Origin: an uncultured Bacilli bacterium
Lineage (GTDB): Bacteria > Bacillota_I > Bacilli_A > RF39 > UBA660
Reading direction: 5' to 3'
Assembly: GCA_934101445.1 (NCBI GenBank)
Contig: CAKORQ010000001.1
Coordinates: 1-53,324 of the forward strand
Length of the DNA: 53,324 nt
Part shown: one piece after another, positions 188-53,130 of the stretch
Layout of the letters: each line of letters starts with the position of its first letter
Position numbering within the stretch: position 1 is the first letter of the stretch
Notes under the pieces: model-generated
What the model was told of the DNA's origin: nothing
Database searches by the model: none
The model's input: the letters and a program-made list of their open reading frames with translations, nothing else
Translations under genes and position numbers: made by a program

Positions 188-1762
188 CTATACTCTCACT
201 TCAAATCCGTTCTTAAAGATGAACCGTATATCATCCTTTGCATTTACAACTACTTCCTGCACAAGACTGCTCCAAAGTCCTTCATCGAACTCTTCTACCA
301 AAGCCCCCTGCTTTTCCAAGGTCTGGATGAAACCCTTAAGCAATTCTCGTTTTTCCCTTTTTCCGTTAATCTCTCCTTTTATCTTATCACGCTTTTCTTT
401 GATGGAGTCATACCGTTTTACAAGTTCTGTATACTTTCTTCCATACTCATTCTGATCAAGGTTCTTCCGGCTATTCTCTTCAATTGCTGCTTGCATCTGT
501 TTTGCCAAGATATTCATTTCTACAATGCAGTCCCCAAAATCCTTATCAAGCAAATCTGTGTTGCTGACCATGTCCATCATATTTTTTGTATTTTCAATGA
601 TTTCTTCTTTATCTGCAAATAAGGCATTGGCTGCCTGGATAAACAGTTCTTTAATTTCATCTTCCGTAAGATGTGGTGTTTTACATTTACACCCATTTGC
701 ATATTTATGGTTGCATTGGTAGATTACCCGTCTGTACTTATCATTGGAATGCCAGACCTTTGCCCCGTACCAAGAACCGCACTCTCCACATTTTATTTTA
801 GAAGAAAAAGGTGTAGTTCCGCTATATCGCCCCATCGCCTGACGTCTGTTAAGTTCTGCCTGTACCTGCTCGAACTGGTCTGCTGTAACAATACCTTCAT
901 GGTGACCTTCCACATAATACTGTGGTACTTCACCGTTATTTGTCACTCTTTTATGGGTAAGGAAATCCTTTGTGAAACACTTCTGCAGAAGTGCATCCCC
1001 TTTGTACTTCTCATTTTTCAGGATGCTCTGTACTGAACTAATATGCCACTTATCTTTTCCGGCAGGAGTCTTTACCCCCATCTCCGTCAGTTCCTTGGCA
1101 ATCTGATATGAAGAACCTCCCTCTAGGAACCGCTTATAAATATACCTTACTGTAACTGCCTGTTCTTCATTGATGATAAATTCTCCGTTGGGTCCCCGGT
1201 CATATCCAAGGAATGTTTTAAATCCGACACTCGCTTTTCCATCGGCAAAAGATTTTCTTTTACCCCATGTAGTATTTTCTGAAATAGACCTAGATTCCTC
1301 CTGTGCAAGTGAACTCATAATGGTAATCAGCAGTTCCCCTTTCGCATCCAGTGTCCAGATATTCTCCTTTTCAAAATAAATCTCTATCCCATTTTCTTTA
1401 AGTTTTCGCACTGTTGTAAGGGAATCAACCGTGTTTCTGGCAAATCGGCTGACCGATTTTGTGATAATAAGGTCTATCTTTCCATCAAGAGCATCCTCTA
1501 TCATCTGATTAAATCCTTTACGATGACTGGTATTGGTTGCTGTAATGCCTTCGTCCGTGTAAATCCCGGCAAACTCCCATTTTGCGTTGCCCTTAATATA
1601 CTTTGTATAATAATCGACCTGTGCATCATAACTGGTTGCCTGTTCTTCCGAATCAGTCGAAACTCTGGCATATCCGGCTACTCTTCGTTTTCTTACACTT
1701 TGTAAGGGTATCGAATCAAAGCGGTTTCTCGTAGCTGGAATTGTGGTCACTCTTTTTGCCAT
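188..1762 (-). CDS. Large serine recombinase (resolvase N-domain + recombinase domain + Zn-ribbon/coiled-coil C-terminus)
   Basis: N-terminal RVAGYARVSTDSEEQ catalytic-Ser motif; SVSRFARN motif; Cys cluster KCGECGSWY...CNHK...C; 524 aa. It overlaps the upstream recombinase gene by 16 nt. Confidence 0.92.
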   Translation of the reverse strand: MAKRVTTIPATRNRFDSIPLQSVRKRRVAGYARVSTDSEEQATSYDAQVDYYTKYIKGNAKWEFAGIYTDEGITATNTSHRKGFNQMIEDALDGKIDLIITKSVSRFARNTVDSLTTVRKLKENGIEIYFEKENIWTLDAKGELLITIMSSLAQEESRSISENTTWGKRKSFADGKASVGFKTFLGYDRGPNGEFIINEEQAVTVRYIYKRFLEGGSSYQIAKELTEMGVKTPAGKDKWHISSVQSILKNEKYKGDALLQKCFTKDFLTHKRVTNNGEVPQYYVEGHHEGIVTADQFEQVQAELNRRQAMGRYSGTTPFSSKIKCGECGSWYGAKVWHSNDKYRRVIYQCNHKYANGCKCKTPHLTEDEIKELFIQAANALFADKEEIIENTKNMMDMVSNTDLLDKDFGDCIVEMNILAKQMQAAIEENSRKNLDQNEYGRKYTELVKRYDSIKEKRDKIKGEINGKREKRELLKGFIQTLEKQGALVEEFDEGLWSSLVQEVVVNAKDDIRFIFKNGFEVRV

Positions 1763-3258
1763 CCAATCACCTTTCCTTCCTTATAATAAAAATCAATTCT
1801 GTCTTCGTAATTGATAGCCTTTTCTATATTCTGTGCAAACAATCCATCACATTGTTTTTCATGGAAAAGCATCTGTACTGCCCTTCTGAATGTACTGTCA
1901 AATTCTCTTGGTGCAGGACAGTTTCTACACACCCATACTTTATACTTCTTTTTATGTCCGGATGTTCCCATTCTCCAATTGTCAGCTTCAAGCATCCCAC
2001 CACAGCATCCACAAAACAGCCGGGAAGAAAATCCACAATAGCCTTTCTGATATTCACGCAAGATTCTCTTTTCTGTTCCATTCTTCAATCTGAATGTGAT
2101 ATAAGCATTGTCAATGGTAATAACTGTGACCCGGCTCTTGACAGTATCTGCACAAAATCCAGCAAGGCAGAATGCCTTGACGGCTGCATCCTCCAGTTCT
2201 GTTTCATAAATATCCCGAAAATCGCACTCTGCTTTTCCTTTTCTTTCCTTTGTATTACATACCCATTTTTTCCCGTACTTGGATGTTCGTCTGCTTATAG
2301 CACATCCACAATTTGCACACTTGACAATCCCAGAAAAGGCAGTCAGCTCCGGTTTTCTGTTGGGCATCAACTCGGCTCTTTCCTTCATGATCTGCTGTGC
2401 CTTTGCAAATTCTTCCTTGGACACCAAAGGTTCAAACATTTCTTCCACGGCATACATTGGAAGTTCTCCCTGATTTCGTTTTCGTTTATGGCCTTCTGTA
2501 AAAAAATTTTTCTGTAAAATCATGGTACCTGTGTAAGAAATGCTTGAGAGAATATTTTTAATAGTAGAATCGTCCATTGGTACACCGCTTTGTCCCTTTA
2601 CTCCCTTGTCAGCCAGAATCTTGGCTATGCTGTAAGCGGATTCTCCAGAAAGATATCGTTTGTAGATTTCCCTTACAGCCTCTCCTTGTTCTGGAATGAT
2701 GCTAAAATCTTCCCCATTCCACTCATAGCCGTAAGGTGCCTTGTGGCCATTTGGAATACCCATTTTAAATCGTTTTCTGATTCCCCACTTGACATTTTCT
2801 GAAATGCTCTGACTTTCTGCCTGTGCAAATGCTGCCAGAAGAGTAAGCAGTACTTCTCCCTCTTGGGAAAGGGAATGTATACTTTCTCTTTCAAAGAAAA
2901 CATCAATTTCCATATCCTTCAGATGCCTTGTGGCCTTTAAAGTATCTACCGTATCCCTTGCAAATCTGCTGACCGACTTTACAAGTATAAGGTCTATTTT
3001 CCCTAAATCACAGTCACGCATCAGACGATTAAATTCATCTCTGTTCTTTGTGGCAGTTCCTGTGATACCTTCATCAGCATAAACGCCTACATATTCCCAT
3101 TCTGGATTGCTCTGTATTAAAACACTGTAATGACTAATTTGGGCAGAAAGGGAATGATGTAGCTGTTCTGTTTCCATTGATACTCTGGCATAAGCAGCTA
3201 CCCTTTTTTTCGTATGCTGTCTTGAAATAACATGTTCAATTCTGCGTACCGTTGCCAT
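1747..3258 (-). CDS. Large serine recombinase (second, tandem copy)
   Basis: RVAAYARVSMETEQ and SVSRFARD motifs; Cys-rich region KCANCGCA...C; 503 aa. Confidence 0.92.
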   Translation of the reverse strand: MATVRRIEHVISRQHTKKRVAAYARVSMETEQLHHSLSAQISHYSVLIQSNPEWEYVGVYADEGITGTATKNRDEFNRLMRDCDLGKIDLILVKSVSRFARDTVDTLKATRHLKDMEIDVFFERESIHSLSQEGEVLLTLLAAFAQAESQSISENVKWGIRKRFKMGIPNGHKAPYGYEWNGEDFSIIPEQGEAVREIYKRYLSGESAYSIAKILADKGVKGQSGVPMDDSTIKNILSSISYTGTMILQKNFFTEGHKRKRNQGELPMYAVEEMFEPLVSKEEFAKAQQIMKERAELMPNRKPELTAFSGIVKCANCGCAISRRTSKYGKKWVCNTKERKGKAECDFRDIYETELEDAAVKAFCLAGFCADTVKSRVTVITIDNAYITFRLKNGTEKRILREYQKGYCGFSSRLFCGCCGGMLEADNWRMGTSGHKKKYKVWVCRNCPAPREFDSTFRRAVQMLFHEKQCDGLFAQNIEKAINYEDRIDFYYKEGKVIGWQKE

Positions 3259-39600: not shown

Positions 39601-40155
39601 CTACTTATACTCTCTCAGTTTCTTTTCAAGTTCACTCACAACTGCGTCTTTACGATCTCTAAGGGTTCTTCTAGGAATCCCCAGTTCCTCTGCAACACTC
39701 CTCTGAGAATCACCGTTTGCTATCATCTGGCAAATGCGAAGTTTTTCAGAAGTAAGTTCTCCCAACACATTATACAGTGCATCTATTACAACACTGTATG
39801 CCACCAGTTCTTCCGGATTATCTCCCGCTGACTTCTGATCAAAGCCACTCTCAACCAAAACCTCATAAGAAGTTTCTAACTCTGCTCTGGCAGCTTTATC
39901 ACGCTCATCTTTTCTTGACCAGTTATTAAAAATCCTGTTCATAAAGTCAGCTTCTTCCTTGGTAGCTGCTTCGAAAATCGCATAATAATGTCTCATTCTT
40001 CCCGGCAGAGCAATACGGGCTACAGGTACATCGTTGCTCTTGTAATGCTTAATCGTCTCTTCATCCCCATCCTCAATGGGTACAAAGTATGGATTTGCAT
40101 AACTGAGCATTGCTTCGTTGGCGGTTACATTAGAATCTTTTTCCTTTTTTGTCAT
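39601..40155 (-). CDS. Sigma-70-family-like regulator (region-4 HTH)
   Basis: C-terminal LTSEKLRICQMIANGDSQRSVAEELGIPRRTLRDRKDAVV. GGAAAGGA RBS before the ATG at 40155. Confidence 0.75.
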   Translation of the reverse strand: MTKKEKDSNVTANEAMLSYANPYFVPIEDGDEETIKHYKSNDVPVARIALPGRMRHYYAIFEAATKEEADFMNRIFNNWSRKDERDKAARAELETSYEVLVESGFDQKSAGDNPEELVAYSVVIDALYNVLGELTSEKLRICQMIANGDSQRSVAEELGIPRRTLRDRKDAVVSELEKKLREYK

Positions 40156-40156
40156 A

Positions 40157-40191
40157 GGTTGTCCTTTCCGCCGCACTGAGCGAGGACAACC
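40157..40191 (-). promoter_or_regulatory. Leader hairpin whose 3' arm overlaps the RBS of the sigma-like gene
   Basis: Minus strand GGUUGUCCU - 17 nt - AGGACAACC (perfect 9 bp), ending 1 nt before the AUG. Confidence 0.4.
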
Positions 40192-40382
40192 CGAATGTTG
40201 GCACGACAACAAGACGAGATTTCATAGTTTTCTGGAGATAATCATCAATTGAAAACTCCTACAAAACTATGTATCCTCGCCCAATGTCGGCCGCCATTTG
40301 GCTCGAATTATTTATTTGAACAACCCAAATATGCCATATTTACAAAGCCTTACATATTAAGTGCGACTTTAAATTTAGGCAC

Positions 40383-40435
40383 GAAAAAAGGACCTTTGTG
40401 GTCATCCGTTATAACAGATAATCACAAAAGTCCTT
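40383..40435 (-). terminator. Long hairpin terminator downstream of the ImmA-HTH gene
   Basis: Minus strand AAGGACUUUUGUG ... CACAAAGGUCCUU (13 bp, 1 mismatch), followed by a U-run. A second perfect 9-bp hairpin lies at 40454..40474. Confidence 0.5.
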
Positions 40436-40500
40436 TATTTATCTTGTGCTTATGCATTAAGTGGGACTTAATGCTTGATATAAATTTTTTTAATTTTTTC

Positions 40501-42444
40501 TTAGATTCTTTCCTTTACTTCCTTTACCACATTGTTCCTTGCTGGAATCCAGTCTTTTGAAACACCAGACATAATAAGTTTTTCAACCCACTGTTCCCAT
40601 GTATCATCCATATGATTTTCAATGAGAATCCTTACAAATATATTGGACGGAGTCATATTTGTCAGTTTAATATCTGCAGCATCCAATAGGTAGATGGCTT
40701 CATGCGGTCGTAAATACAACCCTTTGCACAAAGCAAGCACAGTCCCCTTTTCCATTGTAGGATCGTATGTATTGCGATATCCACTTATACTTACTGTGCT
40801 GATTCCAGTTCTGTCCTGTAACTCATACTCAGATATTCCCTTAGATTTCATAAAATAATCTAATGCCCCAGCAAATCCACCTTTCATGTTCTCATGAACA
40901 TCCTTTAGTTCCTCATTGACCATCCCCATTATAGCATCAATCTCAGATTGCATTTTCTCCTTGGTCTGATTGATTTCATGATTTGGATCATATTCAACAG
41001 GAACGAACTCCTGTGCATCTATTTCCCGGCACAAAAAGCATCTTCGATAAAAAGTATCCGAATACTTATCACCTGCATTGTAATTTCGCTTAAACAAGAA
41101 ACAGCATTCATCTGCATGTTCAAGCGCATAGTCCGTAAGAATATATTGATTGTTCTCATTTGGCATAACATAACGAGGATCATTGAAACACAGCATACAA
41201 TTTGCATAGACAAGAACTCCCTTTGCATACAGTTCCATCAGCTTCGGAGTCATTACTATGCTGCGAATAAGATTCTCCTCATCAATCACAAAACTATGGT
41301 TCTTATCCAGAAGTCCTTTTTTAAATGCATACGGGGGCAGCCCTTTTCCGTCACAGTATACACAAGTTCCCTCCACTTCTTCAAATCCCAATTCAAATAA
41401 TCTCAATTTGGCAGCAAGCCGTGAAACCAAAAAATAATTTGCTACAAGCCCCACTGTCTCTTCTAATGTTTCAGCATATCGCTGCATTGGTTTTGTGGCA
41501 TGTACATCAGCAAGTATTTTGTTAAATACTCTTCTTGTAGTTTTCTCCGGCATAAGAATCCGGGGAGCCAGCTGATTTGCCTGCCACTCCATCCACTTAA
41601 GTGCAGATTCTTCGTGTCCGATACCATTATATTCTCCTTCGACTATTTCACATGAAATGTGTCCGATATTACCCTGTAATAACTTTTGTAACTCAAACGC
41701 TCTTCTATGCCTATCCCAATGAACACATTCGTGAATAATAGTATTATTGGCAGTTCCGATATTATACATAAAGTAAACGTTCGGGTTAATAAGCATTGTT
41801 CCTGGGGCGATTATAATTTCGATTACTTCGGTTCCACGAATATCAGAATACACTTTAACTTTCTCGGAATCAAAGTAAGTCTTGCCAAAGATACCTTCTT
41901 CCAATGGTGCAAAATACATTTTCATTCCCATTGTTTGTACAATTTCTTCTACTGGAACGGTCATAGGCTGTAAAAGTGCCTTCGGACAATATTTTCTTAA
42001 AAATTCCTCTGCATGTCTTTCAACATCCTCCTCGTACATATATGGAATAAGATTCTGGCTCAATGATTTGTTTCTATCAAATTGGCGCTCATTATATTCA
42101 TCTACCTTGGTAATTTTGACTTCATGGAGACCATCATCCAATATAGCTGAAAAAAATACATTATAGCACCCCTGTACTCCGATACTATCATAGCCATAGC
42201 TTGTCTTACCTTTCACTTCTATTTCAGCATCTATTGTTGTACGAATAACAAGATATTTATCTTCTCCTTCATCAAAAGTAACTCCGCAGACCCCTATATT
42301 CTCCAAATTTACCCACAAAACCTTATATATTTCATCTGATTCAAAACTGTCCTTTCTTAAAGCTATATACTCCTTTATTTTATTGAAAATTTCCTCATAA
42401 TAATTGTCTTCCATGTACTCTGAAAAATTATTATATTTTTTCAA
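40501..42444 (-). CDS. Large ImmA/IrrE-type (M78) zinc metallopeptidase fused to a C-terminal XRE-type HTH, with unknown N-terminal and middle domains
   Basis: HECVHW (HExxH) followed by ANQLAPRILMP. C-terminal KSKGISEYELQDRTGISTVSISGYRN HTH. 647 aa. Confidence 0.8.
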   Translation of the reverse strand: MKKYNNFSEYMEDNYYEEIFNKIKEYIALRKDSFESDEIYKVLWVNLENIGVCGVTFDEGEDKYLVIRTTIDAEIEVKGKTSYGYDSIGVQGCYNVFFSAILDDGLHEVKITKVDEYNERQFDRNKSLSQNLIPYMYEEDVERHAEEFLRKYCPKALLQPMTVPVEEIVQTMGMKMYFAPLEEGIFGKTYFDSEKVKVYSDIRGTEVIEIIIAPGTMLINPNVYFMYNIGTANNTIIHECVHWDRHRRAFELQKLLQGNIGHISCEIVEGEYNGIGHEESALKWMEWQANQLAPRILMPEKTTRRVFNKILADVHATKPMQRYAETLEETVGLVANYFLVSRLAAKLRLFELGFEEVEGTCVYCDGKGLPPYAFKKGLLDKNHSFVIDEENLIRSIVMTPKLMELYAKGVLVYANCMLCFNDPRYVMPNENNQYILTDYALEHADECCFLFKRNYNAGDKYSDTFYRRCFLCREIDAQEFVPVEYDPNHEINQTKEKMQSEIDAIMGMVNEELKDVHENMKGGFAGALDYFMKSKGISEYELQDRTGISTVSISGYRNTYDPTMEKGTVLALCKGLYLRPHEAIYLLDAADIKLTNMTPSNIFVRILIENHMDDTWEQWVEKLIMSGVSKDWIPARNNVVKEVKERI

Positions 42445-42486
42445 TCGGACATCCCCCTTTGTATATAATTTAACTCATTCGTCCAT

Positions 42487-42978
42487 CTACATTAATCCAA
42501 TAAAGTCAATATTGTTCTTTATGTTATTATATACATCCCTACATAAGTATAATGGATTTGATAAATCCTTTTGAATCGCATCTAAGAATCTGTCAATTTC
42601 TATAACTATTTCTTCATTTGTCATATTATGGATAGGGAAATGGAGTCCGTTGATCCACATATCCTGTATATAATGCTTAGTATTTCCTGTGGCCCTTATT
42701 CTTTTGTCCAGCGTTTTATGAACATAAAATGCAATATCCCTAGAACTAACTGCAATTTCAACAAACCCAACAATTTGATTATATTTCCATACATTTCTTG
42801 GATATTGTCCTTGCATTATTGACTTCACTATGTTCTCCGTTTCTTCTCGGGTATGTCCCATATCTTCTGAACGGATATAGCACTTTTTCTTCCAATTCTC
42901 CCACCTGTGCTGGAATTCTTTTTGTGACATTGAATAAATTGGCACTTCATAAATTACTTTTTCATTAGGAAAATGCAT
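42487..42978 (-). CDS. Hypothetical protein (163 aa), no recognisable motif
   Basis: Co-directional ORF, 42-43 nt from both neighbours. Confidence 0.6.
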   Translation of the reverse strand: MHFPNEKVIYEVPIYSMSQKEFQHRWENWKKKCYIRSEDMGHTREETENIVKSIMQGQYPRNVWKYNQIVGFVEIAVSSRDIAFYVHKTLDKRIRATGNTKHYIQDMWINGLHFPIHNMTNEEIVIEIDRFLDAIQKDLSNPLYLCRDVYNNIKNNIDFIGLM

Positions 42979-43021
42979 TATATATATCCCCCTTAATTAA
43001 AAAAACTCTACTACCACTGCG

Positions 43022-44119
43022 TTATTTTGGAATGGATGAATCTGTTGCTTGGCGAATTACCTCATTTTCCTGAAATACGTTCATATCATTTAAAACATCT
43101 TCCATTGCATCAATGCAAGTATCTATTGAATCGGTTATCATCTTTACATTCTCGTCCTTTTCCCAGTTTTCCACTATATATTCAGCAATTATTTCTTCTT
43201 TGTCCCATTCATCCCTCAATGGACAATACTTTTCGTCTTCACTAATCCATGCATCTTCAGAATGAACTCCCTTCCTGTATTGATGTTCTGATTCAAAATA
43301 GTCTGCCAAATCTTCCAATGACATATTCCAGTCTGGTATTCTGTCCCGACCGTTTTCAAGAGAATCAATCATATCCTGAGCTCTTTTTATGAAGTTGTCA
43401 AAATTGTTACAACATAGTTTATAGGTATCTTCCTCCTCAAGAGTCATCTGCGTTATATTGATAACATTATCAAAAGCAGAATTCAGCTTTTTATAAAAGA
43501 TAGCGGCTTCATTGACAATCAAATCAGCACTATTCATAATATGATATGCGTCTAAGATTTCTTCCATAGCATTTAAAAAAAAGACTTTTGCAGCATCAAA
43601 TTCACTATTTCTTACAACAACGGTACACAAATTATCAAAGAATTTGTCATATATATTTTTGATAGCCTCTGTATCTTCAATCAGCATCCCTGCCTCATAA
43701 CTATAATGACTATAATTTGAATAATTTGCTGATCCCACATATAAAACATTTTCAGTCCCTACTATTTTAGCATGATTCGCAAAACACACTTTAATAGTAA
43801 TGTTGTTTGAATGATATTCTTCCAATTTAAATAAGGATTGCATTTTTTTTAGTTTATCTTCAACTTCACCTTTTTTATATGTATTGGGAACAAGCGAACT
43901 TTCACGCATTCCAGCCAATGGTACAATGATTGTTACTTTTTGATTACTATTTAAGTCCTTTAGAATCTTCAATTTTCTATCTGTTATATTACTGTATGTT
44001 AAAATTCTTATTTCCTTTGCCTTTTTAAAATCATTAATCACTGCTTGAAACCCATCCGCATTTTTCGAGCCCACAAATTTCGCACATATTCCCGGAATTT
44101 CAACCAAACCATTTATCAT
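43022..44119 (-). CDS. Single-HKD phospholipase D-superfamily (Nuc/BfiI-like) nuclease with a ~190-aa acidic C-terminal domain
   Basis: HAKIVGTENVLYVGSANYS (H-x-K ... G-S-x-N). 365 aa. Confidence 0.75.
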   Translation of the reverse strand: MINGLVEIPGICAKFVGSKNADGFQAVINDFKKAKEIRILTYSNITDRKLKILKDLNSNQKVTIIVPLAGMRESSLVPNTYKKGEVEDKLKKMQSLFKLEEYHSNNITIKVCFANHAKIVGTENVLYVGSANYSNYSHYSYEAGMLIEDTEAIKNIYDKFFDNLCTVVVRNSEFDAAKVFFLNAMEEILDAYHIMNSADLIVNEAAIFYKKLNSAFDNVINITQMTLEEEDTYKLCCNNFDNFIKRAQDMIDSLENGRDRIPDWNMSLEDLADYFESEHQYRKGVHSEDAWISEDEKYCPLRDEWDKEEIIAEYIVENWEKDENVKMITDSIDTCIDAMEDVLNDMNVFQENEVIRQATDSSIPK

Positions 44120-44371
44120 GAGTCATTCCCCAAAAATATCATTTTTTTATATATAGAGTAAAACAGTAAATTACATTTTGCAACACAAAACAGATTTTTC
44201 AATACTATATATGGGTTTTTTATTACATATAAACCCGTAAAATATGCTATTTTTATTATTTTCCCACCACATTTTATATTTTTTTAATAATTTATATGGG
44301 TTTTTTGTATATACATTTAAGGTTTTGTGTGATATTATAAATATACACTCATAGGCAAGGAGGTATTTATA

Positions 44372-45475
44372 ATGAGTATAATTGCAGAAAGTAGCATTAA
44401 CGTTGCATCCATCATCAATCTTATCAGTGCTCTTCCAAGAGCAACAGAATACCCTTACATTAATGAAACCACACACACCGTTGTAACAATAGAAGATATA
44501 GTTTTCCCTTATGGCCCTATTGTAATCAAGCGTTGGGACCCAACTAAAGGAGAAACCAGAGCTTCCTCTGAATCAGTTTCAATATCAATGCAAATGATAA
44601 ATCGAGTAGCTAACGCCATTACTGAAGGCGCACCTATCAATATTGATAGACTTCTCGGTGCATCCTATAATACCAGGTCAGCTTTTGAAACTTTGCTCTG
44701 TCATACCCCTCCATTTTATTTTTGTTACCCCGGACGCATTGAGTTAACGCAGGGAAAAACCAAAATCAAAGCTGGGCATAAACACATAATTTATCTTCCC
44801 GAAGAGCCACATGAAAACGGATATCTCGTAAAGAAGGAATTAGAGCATTTAGAAATTAATGAAATTCCTTCAAAAAATGTAGTGTACAATGCTCTTGAAC
44901 TTCCCGAGAGTACTTCATCCCCAGCCGGAAAAGTTGATACAGAGGCAAAAAGAATTCATTCCCAAATGCAGATGGCCATTTACGAAATCGGATGCAGTCT
45001 CTCTCTCAAAACCTTTATTGCATTGAATGATACAGGTATAAAATATAAAGGGAAAATGATATCTGAACACAAAAATGTAGTCACCAAACTTGATTCTGTC
45101 CCAACTATAGGTGCTTTCGAAGGAGCCGCCCATGCCGGACGTCTTATAGATGCTATTTGGTTAGGAGACAAAACAATTCCTGCTGTATTTGAGGTTGAGG
45201 AATCTACAGGAGTTACTTCGGGACTTACAAGAATGCAAAACTTCAAAAAGACTCTCCCTCCGTACAGTGGAATGCGCTTTATAATAGTTGCTCCAGATGA
45301 AGATAGGGATAAAGTTGTTCGAGAAATTAACAAACCTGAATTTTCTGAACTTCATGCATATTACCTGCCTTATTCCGCAGTCAGCGAATTGCTTGGTCTT
45401 TGTCAGGAACATACATTAAAAGGTGTGAACGAGGCATTTATTGAAACCTTTTTAGATGATGTTTATATGAAATAG
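44372..45475 (+). CDS. Putative type II restriction endonuclease (partner of the adjacent C5-MTase)
   Basis: Convergent with the MTase and shares a terminator with it. C-terminal LIDAIWL...PAVFEVEESTG PD-(D/E)xK-like block. AAGGAGG RBS. Confidence 0.55.
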   Translation: MSIIAESSINVASIINLISALPRATEYPYINETTHTVVTIEDIVFPYGPIVIKRWDPTKGETRASSESVSISMQMINRVANAITEGAPINIDRLLGASYNTRSAFETLLCHTPPFYFCYPGRIELTQGKTKIKAGHKHIIYLPEEPHENGYLVKKELEHLEINEIPSKNVVYNALELPESTSSPAGKVDTEAKRIHSQMQMAIYEIGCSLSLKTFIALNDTGIKYKGKMISEHKNVVTKLDSVPTIGAFEGAAHAGRLIDAIWLGDKTIPAVFEVEESTGVTSGLTRMQNFKKTLPPYSGMRFIIVAPDEDRDKVVREINKPEFSELHAYYLPYSAVSELLGLCQEHTLKGVNEAFIETFLDDVYMK

Positions 45476-45477
45476 CA

Positions 45478-45514
45478 AAGAACCTGTATTCTCAGTTACA
45501 GAATACAGGTTCTT
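45478..45514. terminator. Bidirectional terminator between the R and M genes
   Basis: Perfect 15-bp stem AAGAACCTGTATTCT / AGAATACAGGTTCTT with a 7-nt loop and T-rich flanks. Confidence 0.75.
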
Positions 45515-45522
45515 ATTTTCTT

Positions 45523-46638
45523 TTATTGTTCAATCTGCAATTCAGTTAAATAGTCATGAATTGTTCTTGCCACTCCACTTGAGAGCATATATGGAACACC
45601 ATTCCCTATAGTTTTGAACATATCTGTCAATGTCATATCTTCTGGAAGGACAAAATTTGCTGGTAAAGATTGTATTGCCAGTGCCTCTGCTGCAGATATT
45701 CTTCTTGCATGATATGGATGCAGATGAACCTCATTATTACCATAAGCTGCTGTAGGCGAATATCTCCATCTGTGAAGTCTTTTATAGCATTTTTTACTAT
45801 CATCACCCTCTTGGTACAATTGCATCTTAGGAAGTCCCGCTTTAGGTTGGAAGTGATCATGCGCATTGGGATGATTCTCAACATCATTGATTTCGAACCA
45901 ATGCTGAACCGTAAGTTCCTCCGGAATTCCCTGAGGCATTGGTCTTTCGCCGCCTTCGACAAAATCCTGATTCTCTGGCCAAGGAAACGCATTAATTTGC
46001 TCCATCGTATATTGCTGGTATCTTTCCCACGGAAAATCAATAATAGTACTATTCTGTTGATGATTTCCTAGCAATTCTGTTTTTACTCCAAAGAACAGCA
46101 CCCTTTGTCGATCTTGTGGCGCACCATATTCCAATGCATTGACCAGCCTTTCCGTTGTACTATACCCCGCTTGACGAACCATTTCTTTCAACTCATCAAA
46201 AAATTCTCTATGGCGTTTCGTACTCCATAGTCCCTTAACATTTTCAAACAAGAAAAAATCTGGCTGTCTTTGTATAATAAGATTAATATAAGAAAGAGAT
46301 AATTTGCCGTTATCGCCTTCTCTTCCACGATTTTTCCCCGCAACCGAAAAGTCGGGGCACGGCGGACCTCCAATAAAGCCAACCAGTTCTCCTCTCTCTC
46401 TTACTACATCAATATTATGTACCAATTCATTTACTTTTTCTTCGTCATTTAAAAACGCATTAACATCTCCGTTATAATAGCCAAATTCCGGAGGCTGCAT
46501 TCCCATATTTTGTCTTGCATACTGATAAGCTCTCATAAATTCAGAGTTGAATTCATTTACAAATACCACATCAAAACCGTTATTTTCGAATCCCAAGTCC
46601 AGGAATCCACTACCTGAGAAGAACGAGAAAATTTTCAT
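45523..46638 (-). CDS. DNA (cytosine-5)-methyltransferase (type II R-M)
   Basis: Motif I FSGSGFLDLG, IV GGPPCPDFS, VI ENVKGL, VIII QDRQRVLFFG, X GNGVPYML. Confidence 0.93.
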   Translation of the reverse strand: MKIFSFFSGSGFLDLGFENNGFDVVFVNEFNSEFMRAYQYARQNMGMQPPEFGYYNGDVNAFLNDEEKVNELVHNIDVVRERGELVGFIGGPPCPDFSVAGKNRGREGDNGKLSLSYINLIIQRQPDFFLFENVKGLWSTKRHREFFDELKEMVRQAGYSTTERLVNALEYGAPQDRQRVLFFGVKTELLGNHQQNSTIIDFPWERYQQYTMEQINAFPWPENQDFVEGGERPMPQGIPEELTVQHWFEINDVENHPNAHDHFQPKAGLPKMQLYQEGDDSKKCYKRLHRWRYSPTAAYGNNEVHLHPYHARRISAAEALAIQSLPANFVLPEDMTLTDMFKTIGNGVPYMLSSGVARTIHDYLTELQIEQ

Positions 46639-46875: not shown

Positions 46876-48429
46876 TTACAGTCCAAGATACCCTTTCAGT
46901 TTTTCCTCAAAAGCCTTTACTTCTTCCAATTTTTTATCCAAATTCTCCCAGATGCGTTCTTCTGTCAGTTCCTCATCAGTTTTGCTATGCTTTGTCACAA
47001 AAGGAATGCGCCATTGCCAGTTTTCCTTCTGCATTCTGGACGGAAAATATTCATTAATTTTGTTGCAAACTTTCCTCTGATCATCCGGTAAATTTCTTGC
47101 ACTAAGGGAAAGCTGTATAAAATACTCTTTCCCATCAATATTCCGAATTTCATAGAAATAATGATTTCTGGTGTTCCAGCCGCTATCTGATTCCTCCGTA
47201 TCCGGCATAATAGAGGACATATAGGCGGTTTTAAAACGTATGTATGTTTTGGCACACTTTTCCAGCACAACCTCAATTTCGCCTTTTTCTGTCTTTGCTG
47301 TTGCCCATGCCTTGATAATATCTCCCAAATCAGATGCCCGGTCCGGTCTGTTTTCAAAGATCAAATCTAATGCCTTTTGGTGTTTTGCATATATTTCTGC
47401 ACAAATCTGTGCCAGTTTCTCGTCTCCCACAATATCCCTCCTGATCGTTTCTACATAATTATCAATAAGCAGTGCTGCATCCGGCAAAAGCTTCACTTTC
47501 TTTCTTGCATTTTCTATGATGCCAAGCACATCCTGATACGACATGGAACACCAGAATTCTGGATCACTGGATTCTGTTCCTTCCGGGGATAGAAAAATAT
47601 ACATTTTCTTATAATCCGGATATGCCTCTTCCACAATCTTCCGGTATCTGTTCAATTGATTATCATGTTCCGCAGAATCAATCTTGTTCTCAATACATAG
47701 TACAAACTTCTCATCCATCGATACTGCAAGCACATCAATGTTTCGCCATTCCCTCTGTATCACAAAATCATGACAATCCATCAGCAATGTATCAAAGACA
47801 TCCGCTTCCTCTGAAAAAGAAGTCACCACATAATGGATAAATCCCCGGATAATACTGTCTCCCAGTCCATGATTTTCATTCGGGTTAAGCAGCCATGAAA
47901 GCATATTGCTGTGGCGGATTTCAGTTCTGGTAATCTTCAGAATATCAAACAGATTGAATTTGCTCGTCCACTCTGACAAGGGGTCCAGGCATTCAATATC
48001 CAAAAGGAAATTTTTGAGTGCCTTTGCATTATCTTCCTCCTGTTCCGGCAACGCTGCAGCCTCGTTATATACATAATTTCGGAATCTACGCAAATTAGCC
48101 AGATATCCATTTACCAATGATGCTACATTACCGGATGAATTATCCATCAGTGCTTTTTGCAGTGCATTCCTTCCATCCGTTTCAAAATCATCAGAAGTAA
48201 CCACATCCCAGAATTCCTGCTGTCCAGCATTGTTCCAAAGATAAAAAGTATCACCGGAAAAAGTCTGAACTGTATTTTTACTTAACTCCAGTGTTTCCAA
48301 ATAACTCTTATACATTTTTCGGATTTTGTCATACGATAATTGTTTCAATGTTTCAATATTCAATAGGTATCCCTCCCTATTCTTCATCCAGTTCCCGCAG
48401 CCGTTTAAGCCATTTTTGTATGCTGCCAT
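46876..48429 (-). CDS. PD-(D/E)XK nuclease, PDDEXK_4-type, with ~150-aa N-terminal and ~170-aa C-terminal extensions
   Basis: KFNLFDILKITRTEIRHSNMLSWLLNPNENHGLGD and DVLAVS...LCIENKIDS motifs. The alternative start at 48387 gives an 11-nt coupling overlap with the upstream gene. Confidence 0.8.
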   Translation of the reverse strand: MAAYKNGLNGCGNWMKNREGYLLNIETLKQLSYDKIRKMYKSYLETLELSKNTVQTFSGDTFYLWNNAGQQEFWDVVTSDDFETDGRNALQKALMDNSSGNVASLVNGYLANLRRFRNYVYNEAAALPEQEEDNAKALKNFLLDIECLDPLSEWTSKFNLFDILKITRTEIRHSNMLSWLLNPNENHGLGDSIIRGFIHYVVTSFSEEADVFDTLLMDCHDFVIQREWRNIDVLAVSMDEKFVLCIENKIDSAEHDNQLNRYRKIVEEAYPDYKKMYIFLSPEGTESSDPEFWCSMSYQDVLGIIENARKKVKLLPDAALLIDNYVETIRRDIVGDEKLAQICAEIYAKHQKALDLIFENRPDRASDLGDIIKAWATAKTEKGEIEVVLEKCAKTYIRFKTAYMSSIMPDTEESDSGWNTRNHYFYEIRNIDGKEYFIQLSLSARNLPDDQRKVCNKINEYFPSRMQKENWQWRIPFVTKHSKTDEELTEERIWENLDKKLEEVKAFEEKLKGYLGL

Positions 48430-48835
48430 TTTCCAAGAAGCTCAACATTGCTCCATCACAAAAACGCTCTGCCCGGACGGCTCCAACAAAAAGTGCCATA
48501 ATCAGCTGTCCATCCATATGGGAAACATCCACACTGGCCATAGATTTTAGTCCCCACTCGATATGATTGCGTTTCAGTATGTCATTATAGTTATTTAATT
48601 CATATTCCGGGTGTTCATTTATAAATTGGTATATTGCGTCTTCCAAAGCATTTATTTCTCTTCCATACTCTACATATGGCATTTGGTAAGGATGATCTAG
48701 AGAGCCATCTCCGGTTTGATGATCCGGCATCCATTTTCCATAGACTGCTCTTTCAATTTGGGGAATATAATCCGTTAATAGTTTATAAGTATTACTCATT
48801 TCACCATCCATTTTCTTTGTAAATTTCATAGACAT
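48377..48835 (-). CDS. Hypothetical protein (152 aa) with C-terminal ..RAERFCDGAMLSFLENGSIQKWLKRL.. motif (DUF6508-like by eye)
   Basis: Co-directional with the PDDEXK_4 gene and overlapping it. Confidence 0.55.
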   Translation of the reverse strand: MSMKFTKKMDGEMSNTYKLLTDYIPQIERAVYGKWMPDHQTGDGSLDHPYQMPYVEYGREINALEDAIYQFINEHPEYELNNYNDILKRNHIEWGLKSMASVDVSHMDGQLIMALFVGAVRAERFCDGAMLSFLENGSIQKWLKRLRELDEE

Positions 48836-48902
48836 CTTATGTATTTTATACTACCAGTCTGCTACTGTATGGGCAATATTTTTCTTACAGAATCCGTTCA
48901 TT

Positions 48903-49178
48903 TCATCTTTTTCCATCTACTTCTTTCAGGATTTCATCCACATCATCCTTCAATGTAATATGCAGCTCTGCAAAATCCTTCATTCCCTTCAAATAAGCAA
49001 TACGGGTTACTCTGGCAGTATACTTGCTGAACAGTTCTTCCATTTCAAATCTGTCCATCTCCGGCATTTGGGCAGTAAGTTCATAAAACTTGTTTTCCAG
49101 TTTCTGCAGTTCCCGGTCTTGCGCCATTGCGGGATAGCAGCACTGTGTGTCATCATATATAATTTTATCGATCAGCAT
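48903..49178 (-). CDS. Hypothetical protein (91 aa)
   Basis: ORF in a co-directional array; 1-nt overlap with the upstream gene. Confidence 0.5.
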   Translation of the reverse strand: MLIDKIIYDDTQCCYPAMAQDRELQKLENKFYELTAQMPEMDRFEMEELFSKYTARVTRIAYLKGMKDFAELHITLKDDVDEILKEVDGKR

Positions 49179-49723
49179 TATTCTTTCTCCTGTCTTTTCT
49201 GAAAATCAATTACTCTTCCTTGTTTCATTTTTACAAAAGGTTCTATCTCCATATCCGTGTATGCCCAGCAATCCTCACCTTCTGTCATGGTAATAAGGAC
49301 TTTTACTACATCATTTCCGAGAATATCAACACGGTTCATTACCATCCCATTCATGACCTCAGATGAGAAGGTAATTACCCCGCTTTCTACAAGGAAATCT
49401 ACATACTTATGGATGATTGCATCATCCTCTTCCACGCCCAGATCAACCATTCCATAATCAAGCACCGAATTATCGAAAGACTCTACATCATAAGAAAAGC
49501 CTATAAGATTGTTCTTTTCAGTCTTTACTTCTTCTGATTTGAAAATTGCAGGCATGATAACTGCCATAATAAGGGTATCCCCCTCTGAGGCAAATTCTGC
49601 CTCAAACGGCACACCGGAATCAGTAATTCCCCTTGCATATCCCAGATTACCGCTTTCTACCCTTTCCGTATGATTACATACAGGCATTTCATATTTTGTC
49701 GTGTAATATCCCATATTCAGCAC
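49178..49723 (-). CDS. Hypothetical acidic protein (181 aa)
   Basis: ORF in a co-directional array. Confidence 0.5.
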   Translation of the reverse strand: MLNMGYYTTKYEMPVCNHTERVESGNLGYARGITDSGVPFEAEFASEGDTLIMAVIMPAIFKSEEVKTEKNNLIGFSYDVESFDNSVLDYGMVDLGVEEDDAIIHKYVDFLVESGVITFSSEVMNGMVMNRVDILGNDVVKVLITMTEGEDCWAYTDMEIEPFVKMKQGRVIDFQKRQEKE

Positions 49724-49732
49724 CTTTCCTGT

Positions 49733-50245
49733 TTATCTTTCATAATATGGGCGAAGTATCAAATCCCACTTACCCTTAAATTCCATCAGTTCAAAGTGCT
49801 TTTCTTCCATCTTACCGCAGGTATTCCACACTTGGTTAATACGGTTTTCCGGCATTTCCATAGGATTTCCGGTTTCGTCCGTAACTGCCCAGAACAGTCT
49901 TTCTGCTTCAACCCACGTTGCAAATTTCTTTACCTCTTCCAGTTTATTTTCCGGAAATTCTTCATCCAGCCAAATCAACGAGCCGTTCTTCTGAAGCATT
50001 AATGTACTTCCGAATATCCAGTCTGCATCAAAATCATGCTGTGTATTAATATGAATGTCCTTAATCCATGCAAACCGTAAAAGAACCCCTTCACACCCGG
50101 TATCATATTGTAGGAAGATTTCAACCATATCCATTCCCGGAACATACTCTATTTTTATTGCCCGGAAATCATGAAATTCCCAATTGCATTCCAAAAACTC
50201 TTTGATACCTTTCTCTGTTTTTTCCACTTCATACCACTTTGCCAT
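49733..50245 (-). CDS. Hypothetical acidic protein (170 aa), immunity-protein-like
   Basis: ORF in a co-directional array. Confidence 0.5.
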   Translation of the reverse strand: MAKWYEVEKTEKGIKEFLECNWEFHDFRAIKIEYVPGMDMVEIFLQYDTGCEGVLLRFAWIKDIHINTQHDFDADWIFGSTLMLQKNGSLIWLDEEFPENKLEEVKKFATWVEAERLFWAVTDETGNPMEMPENRINQVWNTCGKMEEKHFELMEFKGKWDLILRPYYER

Positions 50246-50278
50246 TGGTACTTCTCCTTCCCCTATACTGCAAAACTC

Positions 50279-51824: not shown

Positions 51825-52044
51825 TAAGCCTGTCCTCCTTTCACTTGATAACGATAACAAATAATTACACGATTGCTCTTCCTATCGTTAATAGGGTTTC
51901 AAATATGTCTCCCAGATTTTTTCTTGTCAGATATCATTTTCAAATTAATTCAAGTGTTATCCGCATCCATCCTCTAAATAACGCATTTTTGCGATGTTTA
52001 CACCTTTTCACTCTCCGTATGAAAAGTAAATTGCACGTTTCAAT

Positions 52045-53130
52045 GTTCATGGCTGCAACAAGCATAAAATTACATGGATAAACATAGCTTCCGCTTTTTC
52101 TGGTAATCACAATTTTCCCCTCTTCCATCGGCTGACGCAGCATATCAAGTGTCTGCCTCTTAAATTCAGGTAATTCATCTAAAAATAAAACTCCATGATT
52201 GGATAATGAAATAATTCCCGGACCCGGGATGATTCCGCCTCCCACAAGGGCCTGCGGCGTAATAGTATGATGTGGTGTCTGAAATGGTCGTTTACAGATA
52301 AAAGGACGCTTCTCATTTAACAGTCCCGCTACACTGTACACTTTGGATGTATCCAGCATTTCCTTTTCTTCCATTGGTGGCAGTATTCCACTCAATGCTG
52401 CGGCAATCATTGATTTTCCTGTTCCCGGCGGTCCGGTTAAAAGAAGATTGTGAAAACCGGCCGCTGCAATTTCTGCTGCTCGTTTTGCCATAGATTGTCC
52501 TATGATATCTGCAAAGTTTGGCGTAATATGCGTCTGCGATTTGTCTATAGGATCCGGAAAAGCCGTTTTTGCGGAAGTACCGGATACGATTTGGGGCATC
52601 TTAGTTTTCACCATAGATTCCCAGTTTTCAAAAATATCAAATAACCGGTACAGATCCCCCAACTCTATGATTCGAATTCCCTTTATATATTCCGCCTCAT
52701 GTCTGTTATCCGACGGTAAAATACATGTTTTGATTCCTTTTTCCTTCGCCGTAATTAAAACAGGCAAAATTCCGGGAACACCTCTGACCTGTCCATCCAG
52801 CCCTAGCTCCCCAATGGCGATCCACTGCTCATCCTTTGGCAACTCCACTACTCCCATTGTTGCCAGAATACCAATTGCAATTGGCAGATCAAAAGCGGTC
52901 CCGCCCTTCTTGATACCTGCCGGCGATAAATTGATCGTCACCCGCTTAGGCGGAATCGCATATCCAATGTTTTTCAATGCAACACGGACACGCTCGGACG
53001 ATTCCCGGACCTCATGACCAAGATTTCCAACCATGTCCATACACGGCAGACCATCCGCCATGTCAATTTCTGCCGTAACAAGGTATCCATCAACACCATT
53101 TACGGCACCTGTTAATACAGATTGAAACAT
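52045..53130 (-). pseudogene. comM: comM/yifB (Mg-chelatase-like AAA+ competence protein), 5' fragment truncated by prophage insertion
   Basis: Lon-like N-domain, Walker [18 protein letters not shown] and FMLVAAMN are all present. The frame then continues into unrelated sequence (IETCNLLF...) where full-length ComM has PCPCG... The rest of the protein is absent. Confidence 0.85.

Follow-up and report, generated by a model that had tools for sequence, protein, structure and literature searches.

A PLD-family gene and an orphan gene in a variable restriction hotspot of a prophage, upstream of a gene for a putative fused M78 peptidase-HTH regulator

When three adjacent genes in an unfamiliar combination are encountered in a prophage, the question arises as to whether they constitute one dedicated system or a mosaic of cargo and phage genes. 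The sequence-only reading of the window (the whole stretch of 53,324 nucleotides analysed here, from an uncultured Bacilli bacterium) had proposed the former for a single-HKD PLD protein (g1), a 163-aa orphan (g2), and an ImmA/IrrE-type peptidase-HTH fusion (g3), viewing them as a single sensor/effector system carried as prophage cargo. The prophage setting is sound: the window contains a comM fragment and two serine recombinases, and represents a prophage inserted in a comM-like gene, kin to the gut 'Ca. Heliusvirales' phages and to Streptococcus suis prophages.

Layout of the three-gene stretch

The three open reading frames are co-directional on the minus strand and, as the sequence-only reading had it, closely spaced (43 nt between g1 and g2, 42 nt between g2 and g3), with a GGGG(A)-type Shine-Dalgarno sequence 5' of every start. 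The TTG start of g3 is consistent with the N-termini of its homologues and, since homologues were found for all three, we regard them as real genes. The features of the region are as follows:

39601..40212, minus strand: sigma-factor-like HTH protein, 203 aa (phrog_1740 sigma factor, E 2.9e-9); conserved neighbour downstream of g3 in the phage backbone
40385..40474, minus strand: two hairpins, recognised from folding energy and sequence, closing the putative g1-g2-g3 transcription unit
40501..42444, minus strand: g3, putative fused regulator, 647 aa, TTG start; N-terminal alpha+beta domain, M78 (ImmA/IrrE-type) peptidase, Cys-rich middle, C-terminal XRE HTH and helical tail
40696..40893, minus strand: XRE-type HTH of g3, residues ~518-583, from Pfam HTH_26 and PDB profile matches
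41383..42042, minus strand: M78 peptidase region of g3, residues ~135-354, from invariant columns, PADLOC capP, Pfam, and split homologues
41719-41733, minus strand: HExxH of g3 (H238, E239, H242)
42487..42978, minus strand: g2, orphan, 163 aa, ATG start; member of a stand-alone ~160-aa family, elsewhere the last gene after diverse restriction modules
43022..44119, minus strand: g1, PLD-family protein, 365 aa, ATG start; PLD domain (residues ~29-160), coiled-coil-like helical middle, conserved acidic C-terminal region
43721..43774, minus strand: HKD motif of g1, H116-A-K118 ... G129-S-A-N132-Y133, from sequence and family alignment
44120..44371, no strand: AT-rich divergent intergenic gap, 22.6% GC (0.226), between g1 and the NmeDI-like restriction endonuclease gene
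44372-45475, plus strand: NmeDI-like restriction endonuclease of a Type II R-M system in the same cargo hotspot (PADLOC REase_II, E 2.4e-96)
45523-46638, minus strand: m5C methyltransferase of the same R-M system (PADLOC MTase_II, E 1.7e-164)

The stretch had been judged by eye to be more AT-rich than the structural genes, and this is indeed the case, with a GC content of 32-37% (0.322 for g1, 0.323 for g2, and 0.369 for g3) against 0.442 for the structural region. The hairpin terminators reported downstream are likewise present: the double hairpin at ~40474-40385 has a folding energy of -41.6 kcal/mol (z = -8.6), none of 200 shuffles folds equally well, and its second member (about 40436-40387), with a T-run behind it, resembles an intrinsic terminator. 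A simple terminator scan had overlooked these hairpins owing to its loop limit. The spacing, the absence of internal terminators, and the single terminator suggest that g1, g2, and g3 are co-transcribed. The divergent promoter region proposed upstream of g1 survives in part: the gap is AT-rich, but promoter-like hexamers within it are weak and no commoner than in shuffles (30 found versus 28 ± 5.5). It also carries a 27-nt direct repeat, unique within the window, with copies at 44195-44221 and 44280-44306. A promoter for the three genes within this gap is plausible.

Such tight co-directional spacing with a single terminator, together with the low GC content and a defence-island context, would suit one dedicated defence or abortive-infection system. 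In such a system, g3 would detect infection and either release the PLD nuclease or lift its transcriptional repression, and g2 would act as adaptor or immunity factor.

The three proteins and their known counterparts

The HKD motif and acidic C-terminal half ascribed to g1 are both borne out. The motif HAKIVGTENVLYVGSAN was confirmed, g1 matches Pfam PF13091 PLDc_2 at 34.1 bits (gathering cut-off 27; E 2.9e-8), which places it in the PLD superfamily, and H116, K118, G129, S130, and N132 are invariant in an alignment of 10 family members. The protein is a probable nuclease, but its catalytic activity is not guaranteed, since Glu replaces the canonical Asp of the motif and the spacer is shorter by one residue than in HxK(x)4D(x)6GSxN. 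The C-terminal extension of ~200 residues comprises a coiled-coil-like segment and a conserved acidic region whose terminal Lys is invariant; PDB profile matches of g1 were to coiled coils only (residues 184-302). In its one HxK...GSxN half-site, borne on a PLD domain of ~130 residues, g1 resembles Nuc of pKM101, BfiI, DISARM DrmC, and Mokosh MkoB, but it differs from these single-HKD nucleases in being solitary, in having its own C-terminal extension, and in the Asp-to-Glu exchange. Assignment to DrmC was rejected (NF038319, 20.3 bits against a cut-off of 133, E 3.2e-4; PADLOC DrmC, E 1.4e-3), and no DrmA- or DrmB-like genes were found in the window region; MkoB was rejected likewise, its PADLOC match (E 3.5e-3) covering the HKD region only, with no helicase gene (MkoA) nearby.

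For g2, described as devoid of any recognisable motif, Pfam, PHROG, NCBIfam, and PADLOC indeed returned no match, and a Foldseek search of its AF2 model (pLDDT 81) against PDB and BFVD found nothing at E<=1e-3. Its homologues form 51 clusters, and the family numbers 408 representatives at 50% identity, nearly all of them stand-alone.

The two domains read in g3, a peptidase of the M78 type and an XRE HTH at the C-terminus, are borne out. Both HECVHW and ANQLAPRILMP are found in g3, the motif MEWQANQLAPRILMP corresponds to residues 285-299, and H238, E239, H242, and E286 (the Glu of MEWQAN) do not vary in alignments that reach down to 28% identity, as befits a zinc site. The window protein itself scores 14.3 bits (E 0.036) against Pfam PF06114 Peptidase_M78, below the gathering threshold of 22, while 10 of 15 aligned family members match this profile (E<=0.01; best 5.4e-7) and 11 of the 15 match HTH_3. 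A split M78 homologue in locus L143 reaches 31.7 bits against Peptidase_M78, and split M78 proteins of 263 aa and 298 aa align to residues 134-354 of g3. The C-terminal domain is of the XRE/Cro-C1 type: residues 528-583 match Pfam PF13443 HTH_26 at 23.8 bits (threshold 22), and PDB profile matches of residues 518-583 include C.BclI (E 3.4e-4) and HipB. Besides these modules, g3 begins with an alpha+beta domain (residues ~7-116) and has a Cys-rich middle in which C447, C448, C469, and C472 are invariant. Its structure model, of moderate confidence in the catalytic region, gave no significant fold match. From end to end g3 is a member of phrog_4031 (E 1.8e-139; residues 1-623 of 647 against profile positions 1-618 of 626), a PHROGs family annotated as of unknown function from which it does not differ. 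When ORFs of at least 40 aa across the prophage were compared with the profile of g3, the XRE HTH portion included, no second g3-like ORF was found.

The HExxH...E M78/COG2856 signature and the XRE HTH are shared with ImmA/ImmR (ICEBs1, phage phi105), IrrE/DdrO (Deinococcus), and CapP/CapH, from which g3 differs in consisting of one 647-aa chain, on which the peptidase precedes the HTH, and in its additional N-terminal domain and Cys-rich middle. In related phages the slot of g3 holds separate adjacent genes for a 155-aa HTH protein and then a 263-aa M78 peptidase, in an immR-immA-like order. The COG2856-Xre TA-like pairs are two genes, a small Xre antitoxin and a COG2856 protein, whereas g3 has both domains fused. 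The PADLOC capP match (E 1.5e-5) covers residues 230-355 only and no CD-NTase gene was present among the neighbours analysed, and g3 was thus rejected as a CapH/CapP of CBASS. The claim that no named defence system matches the trio holds, since PADLOC and NCBIfam yielded only sub-threshold DrmC, MkoB, and capP.

Co-occurrence of the families and the hotspot upstream of g3

A multi-gene defence system was defined operationally as one whose component families are neighbours across diverse genomes. Among 84 loci of the g1 family (80 metagenome and four assembly contexts), g2 or g3 was present only in near-identical copies of the window phage. The approximately 27 g2 loci outside the window phage contained no PLD gene, and full-length g3 in only two lineages. 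Of the best 80 viral loci bearing relatives of g3, about 64 have upstream sequence long enough to show g1 and g2; no relative of either was found in the 80, while a family-A DNA polymerase occurred in 48 and a sigma-like gene in 19; the searches for g1 and g2 relatives used word or pattern seeds, so very distant ones may be missed. GenBank phage records gave g3 relatives in 52 cases, g2 in none, and one partial match to g1. The trio as such was found only in copies at least 97% identical to the window. The three families thus assort independently, and the homologue co-occurrence check leaves the claim of a single sensor/effector system largely refuted.

The closest divergent homologues of g1 and g2 have other partners in the same slot. 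The g1 homologue of locus L041, only 68% identical, follows the same Type II R-M system, itself 92-93% identical to that of the window, and is followed directly by an Mrr_N protein, without g2 or g3. The 70%-identical g2 homologue lies between McrBC and an Mrr_N protein on the same prophage backbone, again without a PLD gene or g3. More distant g1 relatives are solitary or adjoin Hachiman, McrBC, SIR2-HerA, AbiEii, YobI, or Tn7 cargo, and some reside in chromosomal, non-phage settings; g1 is hence a stand-alone cargo gene and a candidate for a single-gene PLD defence family. In L143, a PLD relative adjoins the M78 peptidase gene, which would favour a functional tie between the two, but we attribute this adjacency to a common hotspot position.

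Elsewhere, g2 relatives trail McrBC, LlaJI, Type III, and NERD restriction modules, either overlapping them slightly or separated from them by roughly 0-95 nt. They ride two kinds of mobile element: prophages, and ICE-like loci in which they lie between genes for a CD1107-like protein and topoisomerase III. Within its own prophage lineage g2 always adjoins the regulator slot, whether this holds a full g3 (window, L017, L021), a split HTH and M78 pair (L014-16), or an Mrr_N-HTH protein (L008-13). In view of this constancy, g2 and the regulator may be loosely linked in function.

Unlike its two neighbours, g3 is not cargo, so that the earlier description of the locus as prophage cargo applies to g1 and g2 alone: g3 belongs to the backbone of a large prophage lineage, with homologues in more than 1,044 protein clusters and 378 viral contigs. 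The S. suis phages keep it without upstream cargo, and there it is divergent from an XRE gene. The sigma-like gene stands at +1 of g3 in 20+12 of 83 loci, one homologue carrying Sigma70_r4, and the genes conserved 3' of g3 are sigma70_r4-like, DUF2800/PDDEXK_1, ssDNA-binding protein, and PolA genes. Upstream of g3, the recurring genes are m5C methyltransferases (30 loci), LlaJI R1 and R2 (16 and 14), Type I HsdS and HsdM (13 and 12), and GmrSD (12); in the window phage, the slot contains PDC-S26, the Type II R-M system, g1, and g2. The upstream side of g3 is therefore a variable restriction/defence hotspot, and the downstream side, with the sigma-like gene and the replication module, is conserved. 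To our knowledge, this hotspot of the Lachnospiraceae/Streptococcus phage lineage has not been described before. The Heliusvirales paper mentions only common methyltransferases (PMC11283538).

Regulator and cargo: a proposed arrangement and its alternatives

We consider it probable that this locus, rather than being a dedicated three-gene machine, forms the inner end of a cargo hotspot in the prophage, with mosaic cargo upstream of the regulator of the phage. The lineage keeps a conserved pair of putative regulators, g3 of ~630-650 aa and the small sigma-like protein, between the attachment-site end and the replication module, and the DNA immediately upstream of g3 is a swap-in slot that receives different restriction/defence genes in different phages. 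By analogy with ImmA/ImmR, IrrE/DdrO, or CapP/CapH, and given the split HTH and M78 genes of related phages, g3 may be the stress-responsive switch of the phage: its HTH would bind phage operators, and its peptidase, activated by damage or infection, would cleave an HTH repressor (itself or a partner) and so change phage transcription. In an ImmA/ImmR-type switch, the signal for such cleavage would be RecA, ssDNA, or RapI. The PLD protein, dimerising via its single HKD half-site, would be a PLD-type phosphodiesterase that cuts invading DNA alone, and g2, independently mobile at the 3' end of restriction modules, is perhaps a restriction accessory or modulator, or an anti-restriction factor. 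Since the cargo is co-directional with g3 and ends at the g3 terminator, the lysogen probably expresses it along with the regulator, and it would there serve in defence; rexAB, co-transcribed with cI in phage lambda, offers a parallel. What is left as new is modest: the candidate family of single-gene PLD defence, a small protein without assigned family, and a putative regulator fusion that is as yet uncharacterised.

An alternative, to which we assign a low probability, is that g3, with the sigma-like protein, responds to damage or infection and, as CapH/CapP do, generically regulates any defence cargo upstream of it, rather than serving as the lysis-lysogeny switch of the phage; the trio would then be coupled by transcription in the window phage without co-evolution. 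Defence genes do recur directly upstream of g3 and co-directional with it, the capP match points the same way, and the 27-nt direct repeat upstream of g1 is a possible operator. Moreover, capH-capP fusions and adjacent sigma factors are documented among CBASS regulators, and CapH/CapP-like pairs, which control defence operons, accompany DISARM and other systems (bioRxiv 10.1101/2022.04.27.489752). However, g3 lies downstream of the cargo, neither upstream of it nor divergent, is retained where no defence cargo adjoins it, and is tightly tied to the replication module (48 of the best 80 viral loci); furthermore, no operator-like repeat is common to the cargo promoter region and other prophage regions.

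It is similarly improbable that g1, g2, or both serve the phage and not the lysogen. In lytic growth, for example, g1 could degrade host DNA or act against plasmids, and g2 could be an anti-restriction protein that protects the DNA of its own element from restriction modules, whether these travel with it or are encountered on entry. The presence of g2 on both prophages and ICE-like loci, always trailing restriction enzymes, would be in keeping with this role, as would its being small, stand-alone, and without a fold match, like many anti-defence proteins; yet it resembles no known anti-restriction protein or DNA mimic and is not notably acidic in the alignment, and g1-family genes also occur in chromosomes outside phages. 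A single defence system formed by all three genes is very unlikely despite the weak capP-like signature of g3 and the control of defence operons by CapH/CapP-type regulators, as the families meet only in near-identical copies of the window phage and g3 is kept without upstream cargo or with unrelated cargo.

The arrangement that we favour has precedents in the immunity-proximal 'moron' hotspots, such as lambda rexAB-cI, P2 old/tin/fun, and the immunity-proximal defence genes of mycobacteriophages. As in these, a variable set of restriction/defence genes occupies a fixed spot by a conserved regulator, co-oriented with it and of lower GC content than the phage backbone, but the conserved flanking gene is here an M78-HTH fusion and not a CI-type repressor.

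Prophage setting and layout of the locus

The window is a prophage whose insertion site is a comM/yifB-type Mg-chelatase gene; one end carries a 5' fragment of this gene and the opposite end two tandem large serine recombinases. A related prophage (L008) abuts a comparable 359-aa comM fragment. The three genes considered here encode a PLD protein with a single HKD motif (g1), an orphan protein (g2) and an M78 peptidase-XRE HTH fusion (g3). They are adjoined by genes for a family-A DNA polymerase, a DUF2800/PDDEXK_1 protein and an ssDNA-binding protein, and their neighbours include an NmeDI-like Type II restriction endonuclease (REase) and an m5C methyltransferase (MTase). The PDDEXK_4 protein that adjoins this Type II R-M system matches PADLOC candidate PDC-S26 (E 2.9e-134) and is further defence-type cargo of the region, while the cargo-like genes further upstream (48377-51005, minus strand) also include several ORFs without a family.

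Features of the prophage
3258..188, minus strand, two tandem large serine recombinases
42444..40501, minus strand, g3, 647 aa, TTG start
42978..42487, minus strand, g2, 163 aa
44119..43022, minus strand, g1, 365 aa
46876-48429, minus strand, PDDEXK_4 protein, 517 aa
48377-48835, minus strand, DUF6508 ORF, cargo-like
50279-50752, minus strand, WapI-like immunity protein, cargo-like
50694-51005, minus strand, HIRAN-domain ORF, cargo-like
53130..51940, minus strand, comM/yifB-type Mg-chelatase, 396-aa 5' fragment

The closest annotated relatives that carry g3 are the 'Ca. Heliusvirales' gut phages, a gut-widespread lineage rich in m5C methyltransferases (PMC11283538), and prophages of S. suis. 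A megablast search of 40300-44400 against GenBank phages returned no near-identical known phage.

The sequence-only reading described three closely spaced co-directional ORFs, richer in AT than the structural genes and closed by hairpin terminators, and this description is borne out. The g1-g2 and g2-g3 spacers measure 43 and 42 nt, a strong GGGG(A) Shine-Dalgarno sequence precedes each of the three starts, and translation of g3 from its TTG codon gives the N-terminus MKKY, identical to that of its homologues. The GC content is 0.322 for g1, 0.323 for g2 and 0.369 for g3, versus 0.442 in the structural region. A hairpin pair lies 3' of g3 at about 40474-40385 (-41.6 kcal/mol, z = -8.6), with a T-run after the second hairpin. 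The promoter region that was also proposed fared less uniformly: the 252-nt gap 5' of g1 is indeed AT-rich (GC 0.226), but promoter-like hexamers are no commoner in it than in shuffled sequence. A dedicated promoter in this gap is plausible.

Two direct repeats were noted at the borders of the locus. The first, of 27 nt, is located between the divergent PLD and REase genes (44195-44221 and 44280-44306, copies 85 nt apart; AAAAAACCCATATATAGTATTGAAAAA and AAAAAACCCATATAAATTATTAAAAAA on the minus strand). It occurs as a single pair in the window (chance expectation 0) and might serve the R-M or PLD genes as an operator or promoter element. The second, of 21 nt, flanks the g3 terminator (40349-40369 and 40449-40469, copies 100 nt apart; AAGTCGCACTTAATATGTAAG and AAGTCCCACTTAATGCATAAG on the minus strand); one copy makes up the first hairpin, the repeat is unique within the window, and it may be a regulator-binding site 5' of the gene for a sigma-like protein, the conserved downstream partner of g3. 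Operator sites common to the whole prophage were considered and rejected, as each repeat is restricted to one intergenic region.

Gene neighbourhoods of the three families

The trio had been put forward, from sequence alone, as a candidate new three-gene defence system, with a lack of co-occurring homologues elsewhere named as grounds for refutation, and a survey of homologues speaks against it on these grounds. Among the best 80 viral loci bearing g3 (about 64 of them with at least 1.7 kb of upstream sequence), none holds a relative of g1 or g2, whereas a PolA homologue is present in 48 and the sigma-like gene in 19. GenBank phages gave 52 records for g3, none for g2 and one partial match for g1, and across 80 metagenome loci of the g1 family g2 was encountered only in a 99%-identical copy of the window phage. 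The complete trio is thus confined to copies with 97% identity or more to the window.

The surroundings of g3, which matches phrog_4031 from end to end (E 1.8e-139), follow a consistent pattern. Upstream, 30 different gene clusters occupy position -1, and those that recur all belong to restriction or defence (m5C MTase, LlaJI R1/R2, Type I HsdS/HsdM and GmrSD). Downstream, a sigma70-region-4-like protein of ~185 aa stands at +1 in 32 of 83 loci, followed in order by DUF2800, an ssDNA-binding protein and PolA. The combination of a variable upstream and a conserved downstream side implies that g3 is a backbone gene at the inner border of a defence-cargo hotspot, of which g1 and g2 are two cargo genes in the window phage. 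Since the three genes share an orientation and one terminator, the lysogen probably expresses this cargo along with the regulator. Phage lambda provides an analogous case of cargo expressed with its regulator, namely rexAB-cI.

With regard to mechanism, g1 would pair with itself via its single HKD half-site, giving a stand-alone phosphodiesterase or nuclease, and g2 is an independently mobile small protein riding behind restriction modules. By analogy with ImmA/ImmR, IrrE/DdrO or CapP/CapH, g3 would be a metallopeptidase that, once activated by a signal, inactivates an HTH repressor. For CBASS regulators, both capH-capP fusions and adjoining sigma factors have been documented (bioRxiv 10.1101/2022.04.27.489752). 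Taken jointly, we tentatively propose that the g1 family may be an unrecognised single-gene anti-phage nuclease; that the g2 family may be a new accessory or inhibitor of restriction, carried by prophages and ICEs 3' of McrBC, LlaJI, Type III, NERD and PLD modules; and that g3 may both act as the immunity switch in a gut phage lineage of very high prevalence and mark its defence hotspot.

Other explanations of the locus were also weighed. It is unlikely that g1 or g2 serves the phage itself, for instance with g2 as an anti-restriction factor. A role for g3 as a generic regulator of the cargo upstream also appears improbable, as g3 sits downstream of that cargo, is kept without it in S. suis phages and is tightly linked to the replication module. 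Finally, a dedicated system of g1, g2 and g3 is contradicted by the co-occurrence data and has very little chance of being correct.

If the trio is a mosaic of cargo and backbone, the value of the locus would lie in a rule of genome organisation and not in a new three-gene machine. Across a very widespread prophage lineage (Firmicutes gut and streptococcal prophages), the gene position directly 5' of the phrog_4031 regulator would then be an exchange site for restriction and defence genes, and phrog_4031 would be an inexpensive landmark in the search for new defence genes in Lachnospiraceae, a group with few tested systems. What is left of interest is this predictable defence hotspot 5' of a very common, uncharacterised regulator, and two items among the cargo: a candidate single-gene, stand-alone PLD nuclease family in defence and an orphan-fold small protein linked with, and trailing, restriction modules. 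The regulator is nominated as a further candidate, a fused ImmA/ImmR-like switch that may control the induction of prevalent gut prophages. The locus also carries a caution, in that genes in a cargo hotspot are not a system just because they are tightly spaced and have a common terminator.

The PLD protein and the orphan-fold protein

The domain assignments of the sequence-only reading were right for all three proteins: a single-HKD PLD protein for g1, an orphan g2, and an M78-type signature with a C-terminal XRE HTH in g3. Its remark that it recognised no named defence system in this gene combination likewise stands, since PADLOC and NCBIfam gave matches to DrmC, MkoB and capP only, all of them sub-threshold and rejected.

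Residues 29-160 of g1 match PLDc_2 of Pfam (34.1 bits, cut-off 27), and H116, K118, G129, S130 and N132 are invariant in the family alignment. The HKD motif is a variant in which Glu replaces the canonical Asp and the spacer is one residue shorter. In a profile search, the only PDB matches of the C-terminal half were coiled coils, judged to be noise; towards its end the protein is acidic and conserved, and its terminal Lys is invariant. Family members of ~365-395 aa comprise PLD, coiled-coil and acidic C-terminal domains. No PADLOC 2.0 model matched the family, and its relatives were absent from the viral-contig scan. The precomputed annotation of two relatives (P0055 and P0061) lists PF28187 beside PLDc_2, and a curated Pfam family for part of the protein may therefore already exist.

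The g1 family recurs next to R-M, McrBC, Hachiman, SIR2-HerA and AbiE (AbiEii) modules, and also beside Tn7-type cargo and a YobI NTPase. A relative at 37% identity lies within the prophage family of the window beside an MvaI-type R-M system and Hachiman, while two others are solitary amid metabolic genes. A relative at 68% identity is located after an R-M system like that of the window, with an Mrr_N protein (the 379-aa protein found in the place of g3 in related prophages) directly next. This relative is that of locus L041 (logan SRR26629440_45407). Set against window 43022-46638, its NmeDI-like R-M proteins are 92-93% identical and the adjoining PLD protein only 68%, and the Mrr_N protein replaces g2 and g3. 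These figures suggest either recombination with a breakpoint between the R-M and PLD genes or much faster evolution of the PLD gene.

Searches with g2 gave no match in the Pfam, PHROGs, NCBIfam and PADLOC profile libraries. Its AlphaFold (AF2) model is confident (pLDDT 81, pTM 0.71), with the topology beta1-alpha1-alpha2-beta2-beta3-beta4-alpha3-alpha4; Foldseek against PDB and BFVD found nothing at E<=1e-3, and the best matches were noise, including one weak GNAT-like match (probability 0.25). By eye, a GNAT-like topology and a PD-(D/E)xK motif were both considered and set aside, the signature residues being missing in each case.

At 90% identity the g2 family forms 51 clusters; at 50% it has 408 representatives, nearly all of them stand-alone proteins of ~160 aa. 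A 70%-identical g2 is found in a prophage backbone of the window type, between McrBC and the Mrr_N protein, with neither PLD nor g3. Elsewhere, g2 lies 3' of LlaJI R1/R2, a Type III Mod/Res pair or a NERD protein, in some loci with a NACHT NTPase next downstream, and in ICE-like loci it has a CD1107-like gene on one side and topoisomerase III on the other. It precedes a full-length g3 in only two further lineages (L017 and L021). Domain fusions give no hint on function, as only one of 150 listed representatives is not stand-alone. This member (P0183, 403 aa) has two matched stretches, the best of which covers the entire g2 profile (positions 5-162) on residues 245-401, which suggests a tandem duplication or a fusion.

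The M78-HTH fusion protein

The XRE helix-turn-helix of g3 spans residues 518-583 (HTH_26, 23.8 bits), with PDB profile matches to C.BclI and HipB. The M78-type signature consists of HExxH (H238, E239, H242) and a MEWQAN...PRILMP block, invariant down to 28% identity. The window sequence itself stays under the threshold for Pfam Peptidase_M78 (14.3 bits); in the family, Peptidase_M78 matches 10 of 15 members (best E 5.4e-7) and HTH_3 11 of 15. The model (pLDDT 79) shows an N-terminal domain of a helix and a four-stranded sheet, a peptidase region, a Cys-rich beta region and a helical C-terminal part. A fold search with the whole model gave no significant match; the N-terminal domain has only weak NTF2/VirB8/PARC6-like matches and the HTH a weak Stl-like one. 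Four invariant cysteines (C447, C448, C469 and C472; residues 447-472, window about 41029-41106) lie in the middle region of g3 beside a low-confidence loop (456-479) and may form a zinc-binding or redox-sensing site.

The family is large, with more than 1,044 protein clusters, 378 IMG/VR contigs and 52 GenBank phage records. Related phages have a split pair in the place of g3, with the gene for a 155-aa HTH protein first and that for a 263-aa M78 peptidase second (immR-immA order); in L143, another of the loci compared, this place is taken by a 298-aa M78 protein. Among the prophage ORFs of at least 40 aa, none besides g3 matches the g3 profile, its XRE part included. This result and the split pairs make g3 the best candidate for an immunity-type regulator. 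The Mrr_N protein was considered as a g3 paralogue, but this is not claimed, pairwise BLAST being not significant and the profile match weak and at the level of the HTH (E about 1e-3).

Finally, a 272-aa protein homologous to the C-terminal half of g3 (residues ~391-625, HTH included) is encoded directly 5' of a full-length g3 in 11 phages (L001, 5156-5974, and 10 other g3 loci, among them L100, 7512-8330). This shorter protein is a possible substrate or partner repressor of the g3 peptidase.
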